Virus record (IMG/VR): IMGVR_UViG_3300030329_005813
Span: 1-64,000 of that record
Reading direction: 5' to 3' (one strand)
DNA: 64,000 nucleotides
Source of the DNA: a virus
This document shows positions 4,338 to 57,550 of this stretch, in pieces. Made by a program: the position numbers and the translations under genes. The notes beneath the pieces were generated by a model. The model was not told where the DNA came from and did not search any database. It saw nothing but the letters and a program-made list of their open reading frames with translations. How positions within the stretch are numbered: position 1 is the first letter of the stretch; each line of letters starts with the position of its first letter.

Positions 4338-5597
4338 CTAAACCGTGATTTCAAGTACTTTTTCGTGTGTCTTGAAGAAAGGTTGGGTTGCACCGTAAGA
4401 ATCGGTCATCCACATACGCTGACAATTGCTTGGAATAGGCTTTGGAGCGCACATATCGGTAAGAACGATGTGACCATCGAGCTTCTGGCTGTTGACATAC
4501 TCCGTTGGGGCGTTAAAGCAGGTTCCACCGTACATAACACGCTCCCAAGGCTTTTTCTGTCCTTTCTTCCAGGTAAATACGAGATCTTCGTTAACCGTAG
4601 TATCAAAGGGTACAACCACGAACTCGGCATACTTGGCCAAGGCTTCAAGCTCCGAAAAGAAGGCTGCAAGCATCGAATTCGAGACACTACCGGACTGGTC
4701 GATACTAATGGCGATACGGGCAACGCGCTCAGAGCGCTTACCGGCGTGAATGTAGGGGAAACGCCGATTAATACGCTTCACGGTTGAACGCCGATTAGCC
4801 TTTTGGCTGGCTTTAACAAAGGAACGAAGTACCTTTCTCCAATCAACCTTTGAAGTGATGGACTCCATAATGGTCTTCTTCATGCCGGCAGAAACGGAGC
4901 CCCAACCTCGGGTATTGGCTTCTTCGGCGGCCTTCTTGACCATATCCTTAAGGCGCTCCTGGGCGATTTGCTGGTTTGTACCTTCCTCACCGGCTGATGC
5001 CTCGCCCCATCCAGAGTGGTCGTCAAGCGGCTCGGCGTCGCTCATACCGCCGCCCGAACCTTCACTATCGGAATCGCCTGAACCTTCGCCAGAGCCACCG
5101 CCCCCGCCGCCCTCTTTCTCTTCAAGAATGAGTTTGTAATAGGCTTCTGCGGATAATCCCTCTGGAAGGTCGGCGAACGTGTCGCGGCCTGGAATGAGAG
5201 CCGAAGGCGGCAATTCATCAGGAATATGGGTGTTAATCGCGAGATCCATCGCGATGTTCCACGTCTTGTTGATACCCTCTTCTGGCTTTCTGGTGGTACA
5301 ATGCCCATAAATCAGGTGGTAGAACTCGTGCATCAAGATACCACGAACCCACCGATACTTATTGTTGGCGTTCTCCTTGGTTTCTCCGCACTCTTTGATC
5401 ATACGCTCCATAAAATCTGGATTATAAACCAGTTCAAACCGGCCTTCTTCGGTAACGGTAACGCCAGCGGTAGGAACCGTGGAACAAGCTCGTTTATCGA
5501 GCCGGCGCGAAAGAGCGGCGAAGAACGGCTCATCAGAGAGAAGCCGATGAGTGTGCATGTTGAGGTTGAAAGTAGCTTTTGGGGCTTTATCAGACAT
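4338..5597 (-). CDS. HExxH metallopeptidase-like domain plus vWA domain protein (DUF2201-like), partner of MoxR AAA ATPase
   Basis: HEFYH, WNIAMDLAIN, Gly/Ser linker, MIDAS DQSGS, GGT and LTD motifs; start moved to MSDKAP because the upstream extension overlaps a promoter. Confidence 0.85.
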   Translation of the reverse strand: MSDKAPKATFNLNMHTHRLLSDEPFFAALSRRLDKRACSTVPTAGVTVTEEGRFELVYNPDFMERMIKECGETKENANNKYRWVRGILMHEFYHLIYGHCTTRKPEEGINKTWNIAMDLAINTHIPDELPPSALIPGRDTFADLPEGLSAEAYYKLILEEKEGGGGGGSGEGSGDSDSEGSGGGMSDAEPLDDHSGWGEASAGEEGTNQQIAQERLKDMVKKAAEEANTRGWGSVSAGMKKTIMESITSKVDWRKVLRSFVKASQKANRRSTVKRINRRFPYIHAGKRSERVARIAISIDQSGSVSNSMLAAFFSELEALAKYAEFVVVPFDTTVNEDLVFTWKKGQKKPWERVMYGGTCFNAPTEYVNSQKLDGHIVLTDMCAPKPIPSNCQRMWMTDSYGATQPFFKTHEKVLEITV

Positions 5598-5640
5598 CAA
5601 GTAGACTCCAGAGTCGGGAACTTCCCCGACCATTACAGTA

Positions 5641-5701
5641 ATTATACACCCAAACGCCAACAAAGTCAAGATTTTTCTGCGCCCTTGACAATCTCTTTAC
5701 A
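5641..5701 (-). promoter_or_regulatory. Sigma70-like early promoter with inverted tandem upstream element
   Basis: TTGACT-17bp-TATAAT; CTTGACA-ATCT-CTTTACA on + strand at 5684-5701. Confidence 0.8.
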
Positions 5702-6466: not shown

Positions 6467-7540
6467 TTAGCCAACGATCTCAACAATGAAGTCAAGAACG
6501 GTCTTACCGTTGTTGGCGGTCGCAGAGTGAAGCGCGATAACGTTGGAGCTATCAGCAACTTGGCCGATAGAAGCGAAGAGCTTCATAGCAACCTCGGACG
6601 GGAGCGTCACGAACCAGTTAGCGAGGTTTTGAATCTGCGAGGAAGAAAGCGGATTCTCAAGAAGACCACTCGCCTCCAGCTTCTCGACGAGTGCCAAGTG
6701 GTCGTTAATACCGAAGTCAGCGGTCTTTTCGACCTGACCGTGATCGAGAATGTCCTCGATAGTGACGATACGCTCGTACTTTTCGCAGAAGTCACGGAAA
6801 GAGACAGCAGCCTCGAAGCCAACGAAGGCACACGCGAGATTATAGATAGAAGCAAGACTTTGCTTCGGCTCCGCGAGAAGACAAGCTCCATCGAGGGTTT
6901 TGTTGAAACGAACCCACGAGCGGCGTGAAGGATAGACCTTGTTCGGCTCGTAACCGCCGCCATCGGGAGTGTACTCCAGATGGGTGTGGTTCTGGTTGAT
7001 GAAGTCCCAAACCATAGGATCAACCTTGCCATTGGCCCAGGTGAGCCAGTCGGACACGGTGGGCTCGACGTCAAAGACGGTCCAGCGGTCAAGCTCGGCG
7101 GGGTCCATCTCACCGACCTGATAGGACGAAGCACCGGCATGCTCGCCACCGTTGACGGCTGCGAAAATGCGGGTTTCAGGGTGTAAATGCCACCCGTTCA
7201 GCTTGCGCGAATCGGTAAGCTCGAAAATACCCTGGCGAACCTCCATAGTAGCGCGGTCGACCTCATCGAGGAAGAGCACCACGGGATTATCGCAGGCTTC
7301 TTTGAGCCAGTCAGGGGCGTTCCAACGCGTGGACTCGCCGGTAATAGAGGGGAGACCCATAAGATCGCCCTCGGTCATCTGCGAGGCGCGACGCTCGACG
7401 ACGGGCAGGCCCAGGGACTGGGCCATCTGATAAACCAGTTCAGACTTACCAATACCGTGGCGGCCACGGACGAGAACGGGCATGCCGGCATCGACGACGT
7501 GAGGGATAACAGCGGAAAAAGTGGCGAAATCAACGGCCAT
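6467..7540 (-). CDS. MoxR-family AAA+ ATPase
   Basis: Walker A GRHGIGKS, Walker B LFLDEVDRA, AAVN sensor, DPAELDRW, PSRRSW. Confidence 0.88.
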   Translation of the reverse strand: MAVDFATFSAVIPHVVDAGMPVLVRGRHGIGKSELVYQMAQSLGLPVVERRASQMTEGDLMGLPSITGESTRWNAPDWLKEACDNPVVLFLDEVDRATMEVRQGIFELTDSRKLNGWHLHPETRIFAAVNGGEHAGASSYQVGEMDPAELDRWTVFDVEPTVSDWLTWANGKVDPMVWDFINQNHTHLEYTPDGGGYEPNKVYPSRRSWVRFNKTLDGACLLAEPKQSLASIYNLACAFVGFEAAVSFRDFCEKYERIVTIEDILDHGQVEKTADFGINDHLALVEKLEASGLLENPLSSSQIQNLANWFVTLPSEVAMKLFASIGQVADSSNVIALHSATANNGKTVLDFIVEIVG

Positions 7541-11785: not shown

Positions 11786-11841
11786 ATTATACACCCGTGG
11801 GCCTACGAAGTCAATAGCGAAGTTGTCAAGCGAATGTCAAC
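11786..11841 (-). promoter_or_regulatory. Early promoter with tandem upstream element
   Basis: TTGACT-17-TATAAT; TGTCAAG-CGAA-TGTCAAC at 11824-11841. Confidence 0.8.
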
Positions 11842-12259
11842 AACAATAATTGGTCATCAAATGCAGGTTATCGGGCTCTAGCTCCGAAAGGTAGTCTTCA
11901 AAGGCTTTATCGTCGTGAATGCTCCAATCTTCGCCTTCTTCCTCATCTTCTACGTTTTCGTCGAAAGAGTCGATTCGAGCTTGGGTTTCGCGATCTTTGA
12001 TGAGCACGTTATTTTCCCGCGTGTAAGCTGCAATATCACGCAGCGTTTCCTCGGCCTCTGTGGCTCTCCTGAGAGCATCCTGGACCTCTGACGGGTCCAT
12101 AGTCGTCTCGGGCTCTACCTGGGCCGTCACGGCGCTCTGTGGGCCTGTAAGGATAGCTACGACCTTACCGTGCTTGGTTACCTGGACCGGGCCAGACTCT
12201 AGGTCTTGAAGCAGGCTGGAAAATTGAACTCTGATTTCGGATGCGGTGATTGTCTTCAA
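11837..12259 (-). CDS. Phd/YefM-family antitoxin-like protein with long acidic tail
   Basis: MKTITASEIRVQFSSLLQDLESGPVQVTKHGKVVAIL fits the Phd/YefM N-terminal pattern. Confidence 0.7.
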   Translation of the reverse strand: MKTITASEIRVQFSSLLQDLESGPVQVTKHGKVVAILTGPQSAVTAQVEPETTMDPSEVQDALRRATEAEETLRDIAAYTRENNVLIKDRETQARIDSFDENVEDEEEGEDWSIHDDKAFEDYLSELEPDNLHLMTNYCC

Positions 12260-12523: not shown

Positions 12524-12790
12524 TCAAGTTAGAGCCTCTTTATTTTGTTTTTTGTGTACGCTATACACCAGATGTGCGGCGGATAGCAAGAAAGTAATAG
12601 CGAGATTGGGATCCCAGACCGGCAAAAAGAGAGCTACAACTGACCAAATGGCGTAATAGTATAACGCAAAAATCGTGATTGTAGCACACGTAGCAACGTG
12701 AATGCTAAGGGCAATCTGCCTTTTCAGGCGACCGGTGGGGTCTTTTTCCGCCGCCTCTTTAAGTTTCGCCATGGAAGGTAGTTTTCTCAT
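12524..12790 (-). CDS. Small membrane protein
   Basis: Two hydrophobic segments. Confidence 0.6.
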   Translation of the reverse strand: MRKLPSMAKLKEAAEKDPTGRLKRQIALSIHVATCATITIFALYYYAIWSVVALFLPVWDPNLAITFLLSAAHLVYSVHKKQNKEALT

Positions 12791-12799
12791 AGTGTTCCT

Positions 12800-12976
12800 C
12801 TAAAAAGGGATTTCGGGATCTAGATCGGCGGGAGCCGGGTCATAGTCAGGGTCCATCCCGTAAGATGGCTCATCGTGATAGTTCTCCTCTTCATATTCGC
12901 TTTGGGCGAATTCAGAGGAAAGGTCGAAACCGTCGAAGATAACGGTTGGCATTGGCTTTTCGTGCATGTACGGCAT
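12800..12976 (-). CDS. 58-aa acidic peptide ending DLDPEIPF (SSB C-terminal tip-like); not in ORF track
   Basis: AAAGGAG RBS 6 nt before ATG; first gene after the promoter at 13001-13056. Confidence 0.7.
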   Translation of the reverse strand: MPYMHEKPMPTVIFDGFDLSSEFAQSEYEEENYHDEPSYGMDPDYDPAPADLDPEIPF

Positions 12977-13000
12977 GTAGAACTCCTTTCTAGCCCCATA

Positions 13001-13056
13001 ATTATAGCACCGATAGGGCGGCAGGTCAATAGTTAAATTGTTAAGGAAATGTCAAG
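13001..13056 (-). promoter_or_regulatory. Early promoter with tandem upstream element
   Basis: TTGACC-17-TATAAT with extended TG; TGTTAAG-GAAA-TGTCAAG at 13039-13056. Confidence 0.8.
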
Positions 13057-37126: not shown

Positions 37127-40100
37127 TTACGCAAGTGCTTTCCAAGTTTTATATGCTCGGCCTCGGGTAGAAAATCCCCATTCTAGACTATATTGCGGAC
37201 GAATCATATAGGGCTTATTTATCTGAATGTTATCGCCACCCCTGATATCAACGCCCCAGCACCGCACCCTAATATTAGAAGAGTTGCTGTCTGTTGCTTC
37301 AACAATCAAATAGTCTTTACCGTTCTTTGTCTTTTTAGGTACAATCTTACGAGGAATCAACCAGACAACTTGTAAATCTGGATCGTACTCGGAGATTGGC
37401 GGAATAGCCATAGCACTTAGCTTCGTCATAATCTCAGAATTAATAACTTTATCAATCGGAAACTGCCCGGTTAGGTCGACAAGAGATTGAATCTTCTCTT
37501 CCTCGGTAAAGTCACCTTCGGGAGCATAAAGTTCTATATTGGCCTCAAGGTTCTTAAGCTTTCGAGGACGATCAACAGCAACAGCAGACCAAAAGTGCTT
37601 CAAGCCTGTGAAGCGATTGTCCATAAGCGGTGTCAAGGTGCCTGAGCGAACAAGAACATCAAGCGACTTCTTGTTAAGCTTGGAATAACGTATCTCCTCG
37701 TTAAACAAGAAGCTTTCAACCGAGTCAAAGGGGCGACCGATAAAAATCTGGTCAATAGCGGCGTCCCCAAGGCCCTTGATTGATGTTAGGGGCTGGATAA
37801 GGCGCTTACCGTCTTTGCTAATTTCCCAGACTCTACCGGAAGTATTAATATTTAAGGGCTCAATCTCAAAACCAAACTGCTTGGCGATTGCAATAGCTTT
37901 TTCTTTACGGGTCTCTGGCTCCTTATCGAGAAACGCTGCCATCCAACACTCAGGATAGTAGTTTAGAAGCCAAGCACACTGGAATGAAATCATCGAGTAA
38001 GACACGGCATGTGATTTATTGAAGCCATAGCCAGAGAAGTATTCGAAGGTGTCCCAGAGGCGCTGGGCCTCTTTCTGTGTCATGCCGTGCAGTTCCAAAC
38101 AGCCCTGCATAAACTTCTCATACAAAGCCATCTTAACCTTGGCCGCTTTTCCAGTGCCCTTCTTGGTAAGCACCTTTCGAAGCATATTAGCCTCGTCCAG
38201 AGACAGATCCTTGCCCAACTTATGAGCCAGCATAGCAATCTGCTCTTGGAAAATAAGGAAACCATTCGTCTCCTCGGTCACTTCGCGATGAGTATCGTTG
38301 ATATATCTGACCATACCGGGGCTCTTTCGCGTCTTAACGAAGTCCTTGTCAACGTTCGCCGACAAGGGGCCAGGACGAAAGATAGAAGTGATAGCAGAGA
38401 TATCAATAATGTTTGTTGGCACCACCTGTTTGCAGAGATTCTGTGCTCCGCTTTCTGTGAACTGGAACGTGCCGGCCCACTTACCTGATTGAAATATGTT
38501 TTTGTAGATCTCTTGATCATTAAAGTCGATAACATCAGGATGAAGCATTTGATTGTAATAGTCCTTGACATCGGCGAAAGTTGGCTCTTTAATACCCTTC
38601 TCACGCTTAAGGATGTGCCGGATGGCACCATCAATCATACGCAGGGTAGAGAGGCCCAAGACATCATATTTAATAAAGCCCATAGGCTCCAAGTGCCGAA
38701 CGTTCTGCCCCTCGGACCACGGCGTTTGACGCACGTCCTTCGAGGAGATAAGCGGCATATGATGGTCAAGATTCTCGGCAATCACAACGCCACCAGCGTG
38801 ACGAGAACAGGAACGGACCTGCCCGTATAGAGCATCAACGTGTGTTGCGACATTCGGATACTTAGCCAGGAAAGAGCGAAGAGTCGTTGAGAACTCCTTT
38901 ACTTCCTCGAATGTTGGAGTATACACACCAGCCTTGATACCGTGCTTTTTCTTTGCGGCGGTTGTTGCCTCAAACATCATCTTTCCGGTTACGGCGTTGA
39001 CCTCGTGGAAAGGAATATCATAAAGTTTAGAGATATCCTTGATAAGTGACTTCAACTGGAGTGTATTCCAGTTAGAGATTGGAGCAACAGTGTTGCTGCC
39101 CCACTTCTCCACCAGAAGTTCTTTCAGCTTCATTGGCTCGGCTACATCATAGTCAATATCTGGGTAGTCGGTGGCATCGGAACGAAGGAACCGTGCGAAC
39201 TGAAGTCCATATTTAAGAGGGTCTACCTGGGTAATATCCAAAGCATATGCCACCAGGGAGCCTGCCGCAGAACCACGGCCTGGACCAGTAAGCATCACCT
39301 CGTTGGCGACCTTCGTGATCTCATTCATTGTCAAGAAATACTTGGAGAAACCTCGATCAGAGATAACTGATAGTTCGTGTTCCAAGCGCGAAGTATATTC
39401 TTCGTTTTCGTGCAGATTCTTGGCCCGCAATCCCTCAAAACAAAACTTGCGGAGAGCAGAGTCTGCCGTTTCACCCACAGGAATAACAAAGTCGGGCAGT
39501 CGAACTGTATTATCGGGCATAAACCTTTCGATTCGTTCGTGAGCAATACGATGCGTAGTGGTTATAGAATCAAGAACTAGCTTATCATCATACTCTGTTT
39601 CGCACTGGGCGGAATACTTTTTGTACGACTCCCACATCTGTTCGCCATTCTTAGGATACAACTCGTATCCGATCTCATCGACATCAACGGGAAGTTCCCC
39701 GTTATCAGCCCACGAGGGTCGGCCACGACCAAGCCACCCTAGACGCTTGTAAAGCTCTCTATCCTTCCAGGCGTCGGGGTTCGGATAATGACTGTCAGCC
39801 GTCGAGATCATCTCAACACCAAACTCCTCGCACACTTGGATGATATACTTATTAAGCTCGTGTTGCTCTGGAATGTTGTTCCATTGTAACTCGCCATACC
39901 ATCGATCACCAAAGACTTCCTGCATCCGGCGTGTAACATCACGCATAGCCTCTAGAACGGCTTCAGGGCCTTCCTCACGGTTTTCCCAGTAACACCCAGC
40001 GTAGACCCCACCTAAGCAAGCCGAGGCCGCTATGACCCCTTCAGAGTGCTTAGCGAGCAGGTCATAGTCAAGACGCGGGAAGCGATAAAAATTCTCGGGT

Positions 40101-40579
40101 TCATAGCTCAACGAGATCAACTTAAACAGGTTGTTCAAGCCAGTCTGGTTCTGGGCTAGGAGGACAAGGTGCCTTCGGCGATTTAGGATATTTCTTGCGG
40201 CTTTTTTAGACTCGCCCTCATCCTCGACCGTTGTGCCCTTGGTTTCTGCTTTTTTGGCAGCCCGTGCAGCTTTCTTGTCCTGCATCACGCGATCATAATC
40301 TTCACGCCACTCCGCGATGGAGGGTACAAAGTAAGCTTCCACCCCAAAAATAGGCTTGAAGTCCTTGCCTTCAGCCTGCATCTTCTTGGCGTGCAAAACT
40401 TGCCAAGCTAGACCATTCATATTTCCATGATCCGTAAGAGCTAGCGCAGTCGCACCATTTTCATAGGCAAAATCCATATGCTCTTGTGGATAGCCTAGGC
40501 CATCAAAGATAGAGCCTGCAACGCTGTGTGCGTGCAGACCCACGAATGGAATATCTTTTTTATTCATTGTATCCCCCAA
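37127..40579 (-). CDS. dnaE: DNA polymerase III alpha subunit
   Basis: PHP domain (LHAHS, TDHG, DSHY), GRGSAAGS, PDIDYD, HAGG, KYDVLGL, YGFNKSH. Confidence 0.95.
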   Translation of the reverse strand: MGDTMNKKDIPFVGLHAHSVAGSIFDGLGYPQEHMDFAYENGATALALTDHGNMNGLAWQVLHAKKMQAEGKDFKPIFGVEAYFVPSIAEWREDYDRVMQDKKAARAAKKAETKGTTVEDEGESKKAARNILNRRRHLVLLAQNQTGLNNLFKLISLSYEPENFYRFPRLDYDLLAKHSEGVIAASACLGGVYAGCYWENREEGPEAVLEAMRDVTRRMQEVFGDRWYGELQWNNIPEQHELNKYIIQVCEEFGVEMISTADSHYPNPDAWKDRELYKRLGWLGRGRPSWADNGELPVDVDEIGYELYPKNGEQMWESYKKYSAQCETEYDDKLVLDSITTTHRIAHERIERFMPDNTVRLPDFVIPVGETADSALRKFCFEGLRAKNLHENEEYTSRLEHELSVISDRGFSKYFLTMNEITKVANEVMLTGPGRGSAAGSLVAYALDITQVDPLKYGLQFARFLRSDATDYPDIDYDVAEPMKLKELLVEKWGSNTVAPISNWNTLQLKSLIKDISKLYDIPFHEVNAVTGKMMFEATTAAKKKHGIKAGVYTPTFEEVKEFSTTLRSFLAKYPNVATHVDALYGQVRSCSRHAGGVVIAENLDHHMPLISSKDVRQTPWSEGQNVRHLEPMGFIKYDVLGLSTLRMIDGAIRHILKREKGIKEPTFADVKDYYNQMLHPDVIDFNDQEIYKNIFQSGKWAGTFQFTESGAQNLCKQVVPTNIIDISAITSIFRPGPLSANVDKDFVKTRKSPGMVRYINDTHREVTEETNGFLIFQEQIAMLAHKLGKDLSLDEANMLRKVLTKKGTGKAAKVKMALYEKFMQGCLELHGMTQKEAQRLWDTFEYFSGYGFNKSHAVSYSMISFQCAWLLNYYPECWMAAFLDKEPETRKEKAIAIAKQFGFEIEPLNINTSGRVWEISKDGKRLIQPLTSIKGLGDAAIDQIFIGRPFDSVESFLFNEEIRYSKLNKKSLDVLVRSGTLTPLMDNRFTGLKHFWSAVAVDRPRKLKNLEANIELYAPEGDFTEEEKIQSLVDLTGQFPIDKVINSEIMTKLSAMAIPPISEYDPDLQVVWLIPRKIVPKKTKNGKDYLIVEATDSNSSNIRVRCWGVDIRGGDNIQINKPYMIRPQYSLEWGFSTRGRAYKTWKALA

Positions 40580-45463: not shown

Positions 45464-46468
45464 TTATTCGCCCCATAGAGCTGAACAAATAGTGTCGGTT
45501 ACAATAGCCGTAACCTGATACGGGTCACAATTTGCATTTGGTCTCCGATCTTCAATATAGCCTACTCCCTCGATAGCGACTTGCCACGGAATACGAACTG
45601 AAGCGCCTCGGTCTGAAACGCCCCACTTAAACTCCTTATAGGAACAAGTTTCGTGCAGACCGGTTAAACGTTCTTCAATTTTATCTCCATATACGTGTAT
45701 ATGTTCAGAAGCTTTTACGGCTAGTGCTCTTGCTGCCTGCTCGTAAACTCCCTTTTCAGTACGCATCTCAACGGTAGAATAATTAGTGTGACAGCCGGCG
45801 CCGTTCCAATCTCCCTTAACGGGCTTCGGATCCCAACTAACTGATACGCCATACTTTTCGGCTACGCGCTCCAGTAAGTATCGAGCCAGCCACAAATGAT
45901 CAGCAGCCTTAACTGGTCCTAGAGGACCAACCTGAAACTCCCATTGACCCGGCATTACTTCGGCATTGATACCCGAGATGGCCAGTCCGGCTTGAAGACA
46001 TAATTCAAGATGTTCCTCGACAATTTGCCGACCAAATGCATTGGAGGCACCAACGCTACAATAATACTGTCCTTGCGGAGATGGATATCCAGTTTCTGGG
46101 AATCCTAATGGTCGACCGTCCTTAAACAACGTGTATTCCTGCTCTAGGCCGAACCACGATTCGTGTTTTTCGTACTTTTTGGCCAATTCAACACATTGAT
46201 GCCTAGTGTTTGACTTGTGTGGCGTCATGTCAGGGTTAAGTACCTCGCACAATACCAACGTAGAGTTGGGGCCACGGAGCGGGTCTGGAGTAACCGATAA
46301 GACTGGTTTTAAAACACAATCAGAGCTAGAGCCCTCGGCTTGGTTAGTAGAAGAGCCATCAAACCCCCACAGTGATAAATCATCGTTATTACCGATTACT
46401 TTTGTTTTGCTTCTTAATTGTGGTGTCGGCTCTGTGCCATCAATCCAAATATATTCTGCTAATTTCAT
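45464..46468 (-). CDS. glnII: Glutamine synthetase type II
   Basis: EYIWIDG, FDGSSTNQA, NAEVMPGQWEFQVGP, DWNGAGCHTNYS, EDRRP..NCDPY. Confidence 0.93.
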   Translation of the reverse strand: MKLAEYIWIDGTEPTPQLRSKTKVIGNNDDLSLWGFDGSSTNQAEGSSSDCVLKPVLSVTPDPLRGPNSTLVLCEVLNPDMTPHKSNTRHQCVELAKKYEKHESWFGLEQEYTLFKDGRPLGFPETGYPSPQGQYYCSVGASNAFGRQIVEEHLELCLQAGLAISGINAEVMPGQWEFQVGPLGPVKAADHLWLARYLLERVAEKYGVSVSWDPKPVKGDWNGAGCHTNYSTVEMRTEKGVYEQAARALAVKASEHIHVYGDKIEERLTGLHETCSYKEFKWGVSDRGASVRIPWQVAIEGVGYIEDRRPNANCDPYQVTAIVTDTICSALWGE

Positions 46469-52872: not shown

Positions 52873-54114
52873 CTAAAACTGCTCAGCTTCGGTTGATTCT
52901 GTTAATGCTAGCGTCGATGACTCACCGCCGGTAATCACTTCTTTAACAGCGTCAAAATAGCCTGTTCCGACCTCTCTCTGGTGTTTTGTAGCGGTATACC
53001 CAAGGCTTTCAGCCTCAAACTCACGCTGCTGGAGGTCAACATAGGCGGTCATCCCCTCATCGCGATAACCAGACGCCAGCTTGAACATACTGTGATTTAA
53101 AGCGTGAAACCCGGCCAAAGTTACAAACTGAAACTTATAGCCCATTTTTCCAAGTTCTTTCTGAAAGATCGCAATTGTTTCGTCATCTAGGTGCTTCTTC
53201 CAATTAAATGATGGAGAGCAGTTATAAGCCAGCAGCTTACCTGGATACTTTGCGTGAATTGCGTCGGCAAACTGCCTAGCTTCGTCCAAGTTTGGCTTCG
53301 AGGTTTCACACCAGATTAGGTCTGCATACGGGGCATACTGTAGGCCACGATTAATGGCCATCTCAATGCCGCCCGTAATCTTATAAAAACCTTCAGCTGT
53401 CCGGACATCATCAGTAATAAATTTGCGATCTTCTTCATCGATATCGGTCGTCAACAACTTAGCGCTGTTTGCGTCAGTTCGTGCAATTAAGACGGTTGGA
53501 ACACGCATAACGTCTGCTGCCAAGCGAGCAGCCTTAAGATTACGAATAAATTGTGATCCTGGAATTAGTACTTTGCCGCCTAAGTGACCACATTTCTTTT
53601 CTGAGCTTAGCTGGTCTTCAAAATGAACTCCCGCCGCTCCAGCTTCAATCATAGCTCTCATAAGCTCGTAAGCGTTAAGTGGGCCACCAAAGCCAGCTTC
53701 GGCGTCGGCAACGATTGGCACCATCCAGTCCTTTGAACTATTCCCTTCAACACTATCAATTTGGTCGGCCCTGTGCAAAGCCTGATTAATCCTTTTTACA
53801 ACGTGAGGCACACTATTCGCTGGATACAAGCTCTGATCTGGGTACATATGGCCAGATAGGTTGGCATCTGCTGCCACTTGCCAGCCGGACAAGTAGATTG
53901 CTTTAAGCCCAGCTTTAACTTGTTGAACTGCTTGATTACCAGTTAGAGCGCCAAGGGCGATGACGGGATCTGGCTCGTGAATAGCATCCCATAGCTTATT
54001 TGCGCCTTGGATTGCCAAAGAGTGATAAATATACACACTTCCGCGCAACCTAGATACATCTTGATTAGTCCAATCTCTTTTAATTCCCTTCCAACGAAAA
54101 GTCTTGTCGCTCAT
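52873..54114 (-). CDS. aceA: Isocitrate lyase
   Basis: [49 protein letters not shown]. Confidence 0.96.
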
Positions 54115-56797: not shown

Positions 56798-57550
56798 TTA
56801 AGCGTTCATCAATTCGTTGAACGCGGCATCAACACTAGTGGTTGACCCATTCTTATCATACTTTACAACATCTTCTGAACCGTCGTCCTCACCGGCCAAC
56901 CATTCATCAAGCATCGTTTGGATCTCCTCTGGGGTCTTCCTGGGGAACAACCCGTCAAAATCCGGAATACTATTCAGAAGCTCGGCGCACTTTTCGGCAC
57001 CGCCGACAGCATCGTCACACAAAGGCGACGTTCGTCGTCGGGGAGTCAAAGTGGTTTGCGGAAACTGTGCTCCTGCCGGCTTACCATATTTGAGAACAAG
57101 GTCGGTACCCGTCTCGACATCAGTAATGTCGCCGTACTCGGGGTTGAGAACAAGATTCAACAACTCCTGATACGCCATCTTACCGAAGCCCCAGATTCGG
57201 ACGCCCTTCTCCTCCTCTCCGCGAACCAAAACAGGTGCAAAGAAGCGTTGACGGGCCATGAGATCCTTGGCCATTTTAATAGACTCTTCGGTCCCTTCAT
57301 TAAACAACTGACGAACAAAATCGTTCAGCGGGTCATCAATACCAAAGTTTCGCTTTGGACTGAGAAACCCGGGGTTCTTACCCAAGTTATAGTGGAACCA
57401 ATACTCCTTGAAGGGGTCTCCATCAGGAGTGGGAACAATACGAATCGTCTGCTCACCATCTTCGGGACGCCAAAAAGCAGAATCTTTCTTTTGTCCTCGG
57501 TTTTGAAGCGCTTCCAGCTTGGAGCGCATTTTATCTAGATCAATAGCCAT
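56798..57550 (-). CDS. Single-stranded DNA-binding protein (gp32-like)
   Basis: FWRP..GEQTIRIVP, WGFGK, YGDITD.ETGTDL, acidic tail ending VDAAFNELM. Confidence 0.8.
   Translation of the reverse strand: MAIDLDKMRSKLEALQNRGQKKDSAFWRPEDGEQTIRIVPTPDGDPFKEYWFHYNLGKNPGFLSPKRNFGIDDPLNDFVRQLFNEGTEESIKMAKDLMARQRFFAPVLVRGEEEKGVRIWGFGKMAYQELLNLVLNPEYGDITDVETGTDLVLKYGKPAGAQFPQTTLTPRRRTSPLCDDAVGGAEKCAELLNSIPDFDGLFPRKTPEEIQTMLDEWLAGEDDGSEDVVKYDKNGSTTSVDAAFNELMNA

Follow-up and report, generated by a model that had tools for sequence, protein, structure and literature searches.

A family of acidic phage microproteins with a C-terminal tip resembling that of bacterial SSB

A gene for a 58-residue, strongly acidic microprotein in an uncultured marine phage is, as judged from codon-level comparison with its relatives, real and under purifying selection. 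The microprotein probably docks on an enzyme of host replication or repair. Its C-terminal tip, which resembles that of bacterial SSB, is only one of three conserved motifs. The gene is located in the first 64 kb of a 172,361-bp IMG/VR virus record that is approximately 95% complete. This 64-kb stretch is referred to below as the window.

The microprotein gene and its expression signals

The gene and its upstream signals are located as follows:

12800..12976, minus strand: coding sequence of the 58-aa acidic microprotein, stop codon included (ORF list, 28-member family, dN/dS)
12989..12983, minus strand: Shine-Dalgarno sequence AAAGGAG, 6 nt 5' of the ATG (read directly)
13029..13001, minus strand: sigma70-type promoter with TTGACC, a 17-nt spacer and a TG-extended TATAAT (11/12 matches)

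The translation of the ORF (minus strand, 12976..12800) is identical to the sequence quoted in the earlier note, which had named no strand but had also described a good ribosome-binding site and a strong early promoter. Both of these signals were recovered, and the promoter is of the early sigma70 type. Comparable AAGGAG/GGAGG Shine-Dalgarno sequences are present in the homologous loci L002, L003, L036 and L037, in which the sigma70 promoter and upstream tandem TTGACA-like boxes also recur 5' of the gene and a tRNA-Leu(taa) is found 3' of it. The strength and conservation of the promoter and the Shine-Dalgarno sequence fit high early expression, the early timing being what we infer from these signals.

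The public gene call for this record (P0002) is a 50-aa version that begins at an internal Met. We rejected this call, since residues 4-10 are conserved and the internal Met is replaced by Leu in 11 of the 28 family members. Together with P0007, which reaches the same N-terminus as the 58-aa form via a TTG start, these observations indicate that the 58-aa form is correct. The earlier description of the peptide as unannotated is thus accurate for the 58-aa form, which is missing from the public call, but not for the gene as such, of which the shorter version is annotated.

The peptide is acidic and Pro-rich, as had been claimed, with 16 Asp/Glu residues against a single Lys/Arg, 9 Pro residues and a net charge of -15; the net charge ranges from -8 to -18 across the family. 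Taken as a single sequence, its ending is weak evidence, since approximately 1.1 ORFs ending in [ILVM]P[FYW] are expected among the 969 ORFs of the genome and this one alone was seen. The case therefore rests on homologues. For the stricter ending acid-x-acid-[IV]P[FY], the expected number among the 969 ORFs is 0.005.

Family conservation and motif anatomy

We searched 5.8 billion proteins with a word index and scanned 1.84 billion representatives in full with HMMER, which together yielded seven relatives. A profile search then extended the family to 28 distinct sequences of 39-76 aa, all of them metagenomic (marine), with identities down to approximately 40% (alignment A3). No relatives were found in the GenBank phages, which were searched with the gene and its surroundings at both the near and the protein level, and pattern scans of IMG/VR with the protein and with alignment A2 returned nothing but the phage's own record. 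Likewise, no usable match for the microprotein came from PHROGs, Pfam, the ESM Atlas or the PDB, the last searched by sequence and by profile. Longer or fused forms, such as an SSB carrying the core and the tip described below, were also sought and none was found, which is a weak negative because long proteins crowd the candidate list.

Codon alignments of six loci gave pS values of 0.50-0.98 versus pN values of 0.13-0.49. The synonymous sites are saturated, and dN/dS was 0.18-0.31 wherever dS was estimable. All indels among the 28 homologues are multiples of three. One sister phage (G001; 186 kb, 100% complete, SSB 67% identical) does not carry the gene, and we found in it neither a family member nor an acidic ORF ending in PF. 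Four partial sister records likewise lack the family. The absence from G001 indicates that the gene is accessory or dispensable.

The alignment divides the microprotein into the following segments:

12947..12964, minus strand: N-terminal motif HEKP[ML]P, residues 5-10, conserved in the family
12884..12940, minus strand: variable middle, residues 13-31, predicted hairpin and helix (alignment A3)
12830..12871, minus strand: internal core EPxYG[FM]DPDYDPxP, residues 36-49, the most conserved block of the family
12803..12820, minus strand: C-terminal SSB-Ct-like tip DPEIPF, residues 53-58, a putative docking motif (family conservation)

The residues of the N-terminal motif are present in most members (H in 23, E in 25, K in 22 and each of two P in 25 of the 28), and the motif is conserved as protein, with synonymous codon changes. 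The variable middle is wholly missing from the members of 43-49 aa (alignment A3). The core is nearly invariant, with D46 found in all 28 sequences, D42 in 27 and E36, Y39, G40, P43, Y45, P47 and P49 in 26 each, and it is separated from the tip by a linker that is unconstrained in sequence and differs in length by 0-17 residues.

A tip that is not conserved had been set beforehand as a refuting result, and the idea withstands this test, since the pattern acid-x-acid-[I/V]-P-[F/Y] is present in 27 of the 28 members. By position, P57 and F/Y58 were each found in 27 sequences, and I/V56 and D53 in 26. The codons of the tip vary synonymously from locus to locus. All 27 tip-bearing members terminate right at the F or Y, such that the free carboxylate is located on the aromatic residue.

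AlphaFold2 models computed from 7 or 28 aligned sequences displayed a short hairpin and one helix within residues 13-32 (pLDDT about 80-87), with the helix at residues 20-31/32 (pLDDT 78-87), no secondary structure past residue 32 and no compact fold (pTM 0.30-0.33). The microprotein is thus predicted by the models to be almost wholly intrinsically disordered, and both the models and the length variation of the linker place the tip at the end of a flexible, disordered segment.

The exceptional member is P0029, a widespread 39-aa form found on at least 7 contigs (L214 3385-3504, L215 and L216 among them), in which the core is intact and the N-terminal motif is degenerate. Its stop codon is located two codons into the tip, where the relatives carry the last four tip residues. 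An HNH gene lies approximately 400 bp 3' of this tip-less form in two of the contigs L214, L215 and L216. Since the core is more conserved than the tip, and since P0029 lost the tip and kept the core, the tip is not the sole function of the microprotein and perhaps not the main one. The earlier proposal of a stand-alone decoy is therefore only partly upheld. It is right in that a real gene encodes a conserved SSB-like tip, but two other motifs are conserved as well, one of them more strongly than the tip. A simple decoy does not agree with the tip-less lineage that keeps the core, nor with the absence of the gene from the complete sister phage.

Genomic neighborhood and phage background

Immediately downstream of the microprotein gene lies one further small gene:

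12524..12790, minus strand: 88-aa predicted membrane protein (ORF list), starting 10 nt past the microprotein stop

This short distance suggests that the 88-aa protein is probably encoded on the microprotein's transcript. The genes for tRNA-Leu and tRNA-Ser come after it. No homologue of the 88-aa protein was detected in any other family locus retrieved, and its gene has the appearance of an insertion specific to this strain, placed between tRNA-Leu and the gene for the microprotein.

We searched the family loci for a conserved neighbor that might represent a partner. None is fixed, and the gene order is shuffled. There is often a SWIM-finger gene upstream and a tRNA-Leu downstream, with a Phd/YefM-like gene and also a MoxR/DUF2201 pair in the vicinity. 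The Phd/YefM-type protein (window 11837-12259, minus strand) consists of an N-terminal domain of approximately 40 aa followed by a long, very acidic and variable tail. Genes of this type are also located near the microprotein gene at L003 2296-2619, L037 1088-1387 and L038 3250-3564, with no toxin gene evident alongside, and the L038 copy terminates in DSMPW, which is another aromatic tip. The pair formed by a MoxR-type AAA_5 ATPase and a DUF2201 protein (window 6467-7540 and 4338-5669, minus strand) is conserved in the early region of the group (L038, L210-L212), a few genes from the microprotein. The DUF2201 protein displays a metallopeptidase-like N domain with a VWA-like domain.

The gp23-type capsid protein shares less than 50% identity with its counterparts in the "Far-T4" phages Flavobacterium phage immuto, Microcystis phage Mel-JY01 and Rhodothermus RM378. 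The phage encodes a DnaE-type Pol III alpha subunit (window 37127-40579), DnaB, a 5'-3' exonuclease of the FEN type and a RecA-like protein, in addition to RNR, GroEL and isocitrate lyase. A 334-aa ORF within the nucleotide-metabolism and replication block (window 45464-46468, minus strand) matches both domains of glutamine synthetase, Gln-synt_N and Gln-synt_C. The record, 95% complete, gave no detectable match to the beta clamp (PF02768), to clamp-loader delta'/tau (PF13177) or to chi (PF04364), which suggests that the phage probably borrows the Pol III accessory proteins of its host.

A few features touch on the identity of this host. The isocitrate lyase (window 52873-54114, minus strand) is 72-76% identical to chromosomal enzymes from many Bacillales and from MAGs of Chloroflexi and deltaproteobacteria among the matches listed, and is uninformative on the host because it is too conserved. 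The canonical sigma70 promoters and strong Shine-Dalgarno sites would argue against a host in the Bacteroidota. A one-piece phage tmRNA was found at 154194-154526 of the whole record (G000; minus strand), with the tag ANNNNHFESVRLAA, which is outside the tags recognised by ARAGORN and may be a host clue.

The SSB-like tip and its candidate partners

The phage carries an SSB of its own:

56798-57550, minus strand: phage gp32-like SSB (PF08804), the sole gp32 match

The earlier note had stated that this protein lacks the IPF tip, and it indeed ends differently. In approximately 80 sister contigs (L120-L199; 66-93% identity) it carries the terminal motif V-[DE]-x-A-F-x-E-L-[LM], with 0-2 small residues behind it, and this motif probably serves for docking within the replisome network of the phage itself. 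On the basis of this different conserved tip, we rejected the possibility that the microprotein tip imitates the SSB tail of the phage. Since the phage SSB keeps this other tip throughout the sister loci, the microprotein appears to copy the bacterial docking code and not that of the phage. Of the new findings, this difference gives the idea of the earlier note its best backing, and mimicry of the host SSB tip is plausible.

The microprotein was assignable neither to the bacterial nor to the gp32-type SSBs. It has no OB-fold domain and no match to the bacterial SSB family (PF00436), for which there was no match anywhere in the 172-kb record, and the only protein in the window that matches the gp32 type (PF08804) is the phage SSB itself. 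That the peptide is too short for an OB fold, as previously noted, agrees with the models, and its 58 residues together with the predicted disorder make such a fold impossible. The lack of an OB-fold SSB in the phage and of Pfam, PHROG and PDB matches, the predicted disorder and the charge of -15 thus suggest a tail without a DNA-binding body.

The tip was compared with SSB endings read from sequence, which were FDDDIPF in E. coli, DDDLPF in three Bacillota genomes, LEDIPF and PDSIPF in two SSBs of a Chloroflexia MAG and DDDIPF in one SSB of a deltaproteobacterial MAG. The variants found in the family are DPEIPF (window), DDDIPF, DTDIPF and NDVPY, all within the range of the SSB tips read from these reference genomes, which may not be those of the host. 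The tip in the window has Pro at the position where SSB usually carries a third acid. The exact E. coli-type hexapeptide DDDIPF follows an acidic run in P0005, P0013-15 and P0019.

Like the bacterial SSB-Ct (E. coli ...DFDDDIPF), the family members thus close a disordered, Pro-rich segment with an acidic run and a terminal [I/L/V]-P-[F/Y], and some of them share the identical hexapeptide with E. coli SSB. Unlike SSB, the microprotein has no OB-fold, DNA-binding or tetramerisation domain and carries two further conserved motifs that are absent from SSB. The high conservation of the SSB-Ct hexapeptide and its druggability are well described (PMC5872125), and SSBs of phages and plasmids are already known to copy the tip (PMC13687109). 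A related case is that of prophage DUF669 ssDNA-binding proteins, which are non-OB mobile-element proteins unrelated to SSB with a host-like DDDIPF tip and for which contacts with host proteins have been suggested (PMC13687109). These have a folded ssDNA-binding domain, whereas the family members are disordered peptides of 43-76 aa without such a domain. Among open-access papers and bioRxiv preprints, none was found that describes a peptide bearing the tip on its own, with no DNA-binding domain attached.

Our leading reading, to which we give somewhat less than an even chance, is that the microprotein acts through several motifs as an inhibitor or adaptor, with its tip lodged in the SSB-tip pocket of a host genome-maintenance protein. 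It would be made early and abundantly, as a disordered and strongly acidic string of short linear motifs. The C-terminal tip would imitate the SSB-Ct, such that the terminal Phe and the free carboxylate dock in the hydrophobic, basic SSB-binding pocket. Known SSB-Ct partners in E. coli and B. subtilis are ExoI, RecO, RecQ, PriA, RecJ, RNase HI, Ung, DnaG and Pol III chi, and these same SSB-tip binders in the host would be the candidate targets. The core and the N-terminal motif may either add affinity and specificity for one partner, as in an inhibitor, or bind a second protein, as in an adaptor. As a result, a host SSB partner would be uncoupled from the host SSB or redirected to the phage. 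A lone monomeric tip of micromolar affinity would be expected to compete poorly with tetrameric SSB unless other motifs add affinity, which provides a rationale for the extra motifs.

In an unlikely variant of this scheme, the microprotein would serve as an SSB tail in trans, in which the host-type tip recruits host SSB partners and phage proteins are bound by the core or the N-terminal motif. Among the partners recruited in this way could be chi of the host clamp loader, the primase or restart proteins. A phage that encodes DnaE but has no detectable clamp, clamp loader or chi would thereby plug host replisome accessories into its gp32-coated forks and drain them from the host chromosome. A link between the microprotein and the DnaA-box array is pure speculation.

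We also considered a partner encoded by the phage itself. The tip would then dock on the DnaE polymerase, the DnaB helicase, the 5'-3' exonuclease, the RecA-like recombinase or the gp32-like SSB, and the microprotein would be a regulator or bridging subunit of the phage replication and recombination machinery. The phage does encode the bacterial-type replisome parts DnaE, DnaB and the FEN-type exonuclease, its SSB is without the IPF tip, and DnaE is reportedly an SSB-tail partner in B. subtilis. Acidic tails with an aromatic end also serve inside phage replisomes. T4 gp32 has an acidic tail, and the acidic C-terminal tails of T7 gp2.5 and gp4, with their terminal Phe, bind the T7 polymerase. 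By analogy, this T7-type use would count against the host-SSB-tip reading. The T7 and T4 tails, which function in docking during replication, resemble the microprotein in being acidic and disordered and in having a terminal or near-terminal hydrophobic residue. Unlike the microprotein, they belong to large replisome proteins and bind phage partners. The gp32-like SSB of this phage carries its own, different tip. The microprotein gene is moreover located in a shuffled early accessory region outside the replication module, with its own promoter and no fixed neighbor. The complete sister phage with the same type of SSB has no such gene, which indicates that the microprotein is not a core part of the replisome. 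We consider a phage-encoded partner improbable.

Similarly small is the chance we give to an unrelated type of peptide docking, with a coincidental likeness to SSB, such as an FtsZ C-terminal peptide mimic acting against division proteins, or a peptide that serves a protease or chaperone as adaptor or degron. The core, being the most conserved part and outliving the loss of the tip, agrees with such a role, and PDY and DIP-F occur in the family as they do in the FtsZ tail of E. coli, which contains D-I-P-x-F and an upstream P-D-Y. Against it, all 27 tips end exactly at the aromatic residue, like SSB tips, whereas FtsZ peptides run on past D-I-P-x-F with further Leu and basic residues that make key contacts. 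Membership in the FtsZ-peptide class was rejected, since the family has I-P-F without the spacer residue of the FtsZ consensus and the chain ends there. Neither protease genes nor division genes are linked to the family.

A disordered mimic of nucleic acid is very unlikely. In such a mimic, the whole polyanion would fill the DNA-binding groove of a host or phage protein (an SSB, a nuclease or a restriction or defence protein), with the terminal aromatic residue stacking in place of a base. The negative charge throughout the family, the predicted disorder and the manner in which the tails of SSB and T7 gp2.5 fold back onto their own DNA-binding sites are consistent with this. A mimic based on charge only would not need position-specific conservation of three motifs with Pro, Tyr and Gly included, and the known DNA mimics Ocr, ArdA and Ugi are folded proteins, whereas the microprotein is predicted to be disordered. 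The class of folded DNA-mimic anti-restriction proteins (Ocr, ArdA), whose acidic members are compact, usually dimeric and charged in a pattern similar to B-DNA, was rejected, with no Pfam or PHROG match and no compact fold predicted. Finally, the suggestion that the ORF is non-functional and spurious in the leader of a tRNA operon, which its small size and a promoter probably shared with tRNA-Leu and tRNA-Ser might favor, is effectively refuted by the low dN/dS at saturated synonymous sites, the in-frame indels of the 28 homologues and the conserved Shine-Dalgarno sequence.

The significance of a multi-motif peptide anchored in the host SSB-tip pocket lies in the SSB tip itself, which serves bacterial replication, recombination and repair as their central docking code and is also an antibiotic target. 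If this reading is true, a tiny disordered protein that has the tip but lacks a DNA-binding body would act on the SSB hub as a natural peptide inhibitor or re-router. If the binding is true, the family would supply evolved competitors for the SSB tip with higher affinity, its invariant core may reveal how affinity or selectivity is gained, and a new class of host-takeover factor would be added.
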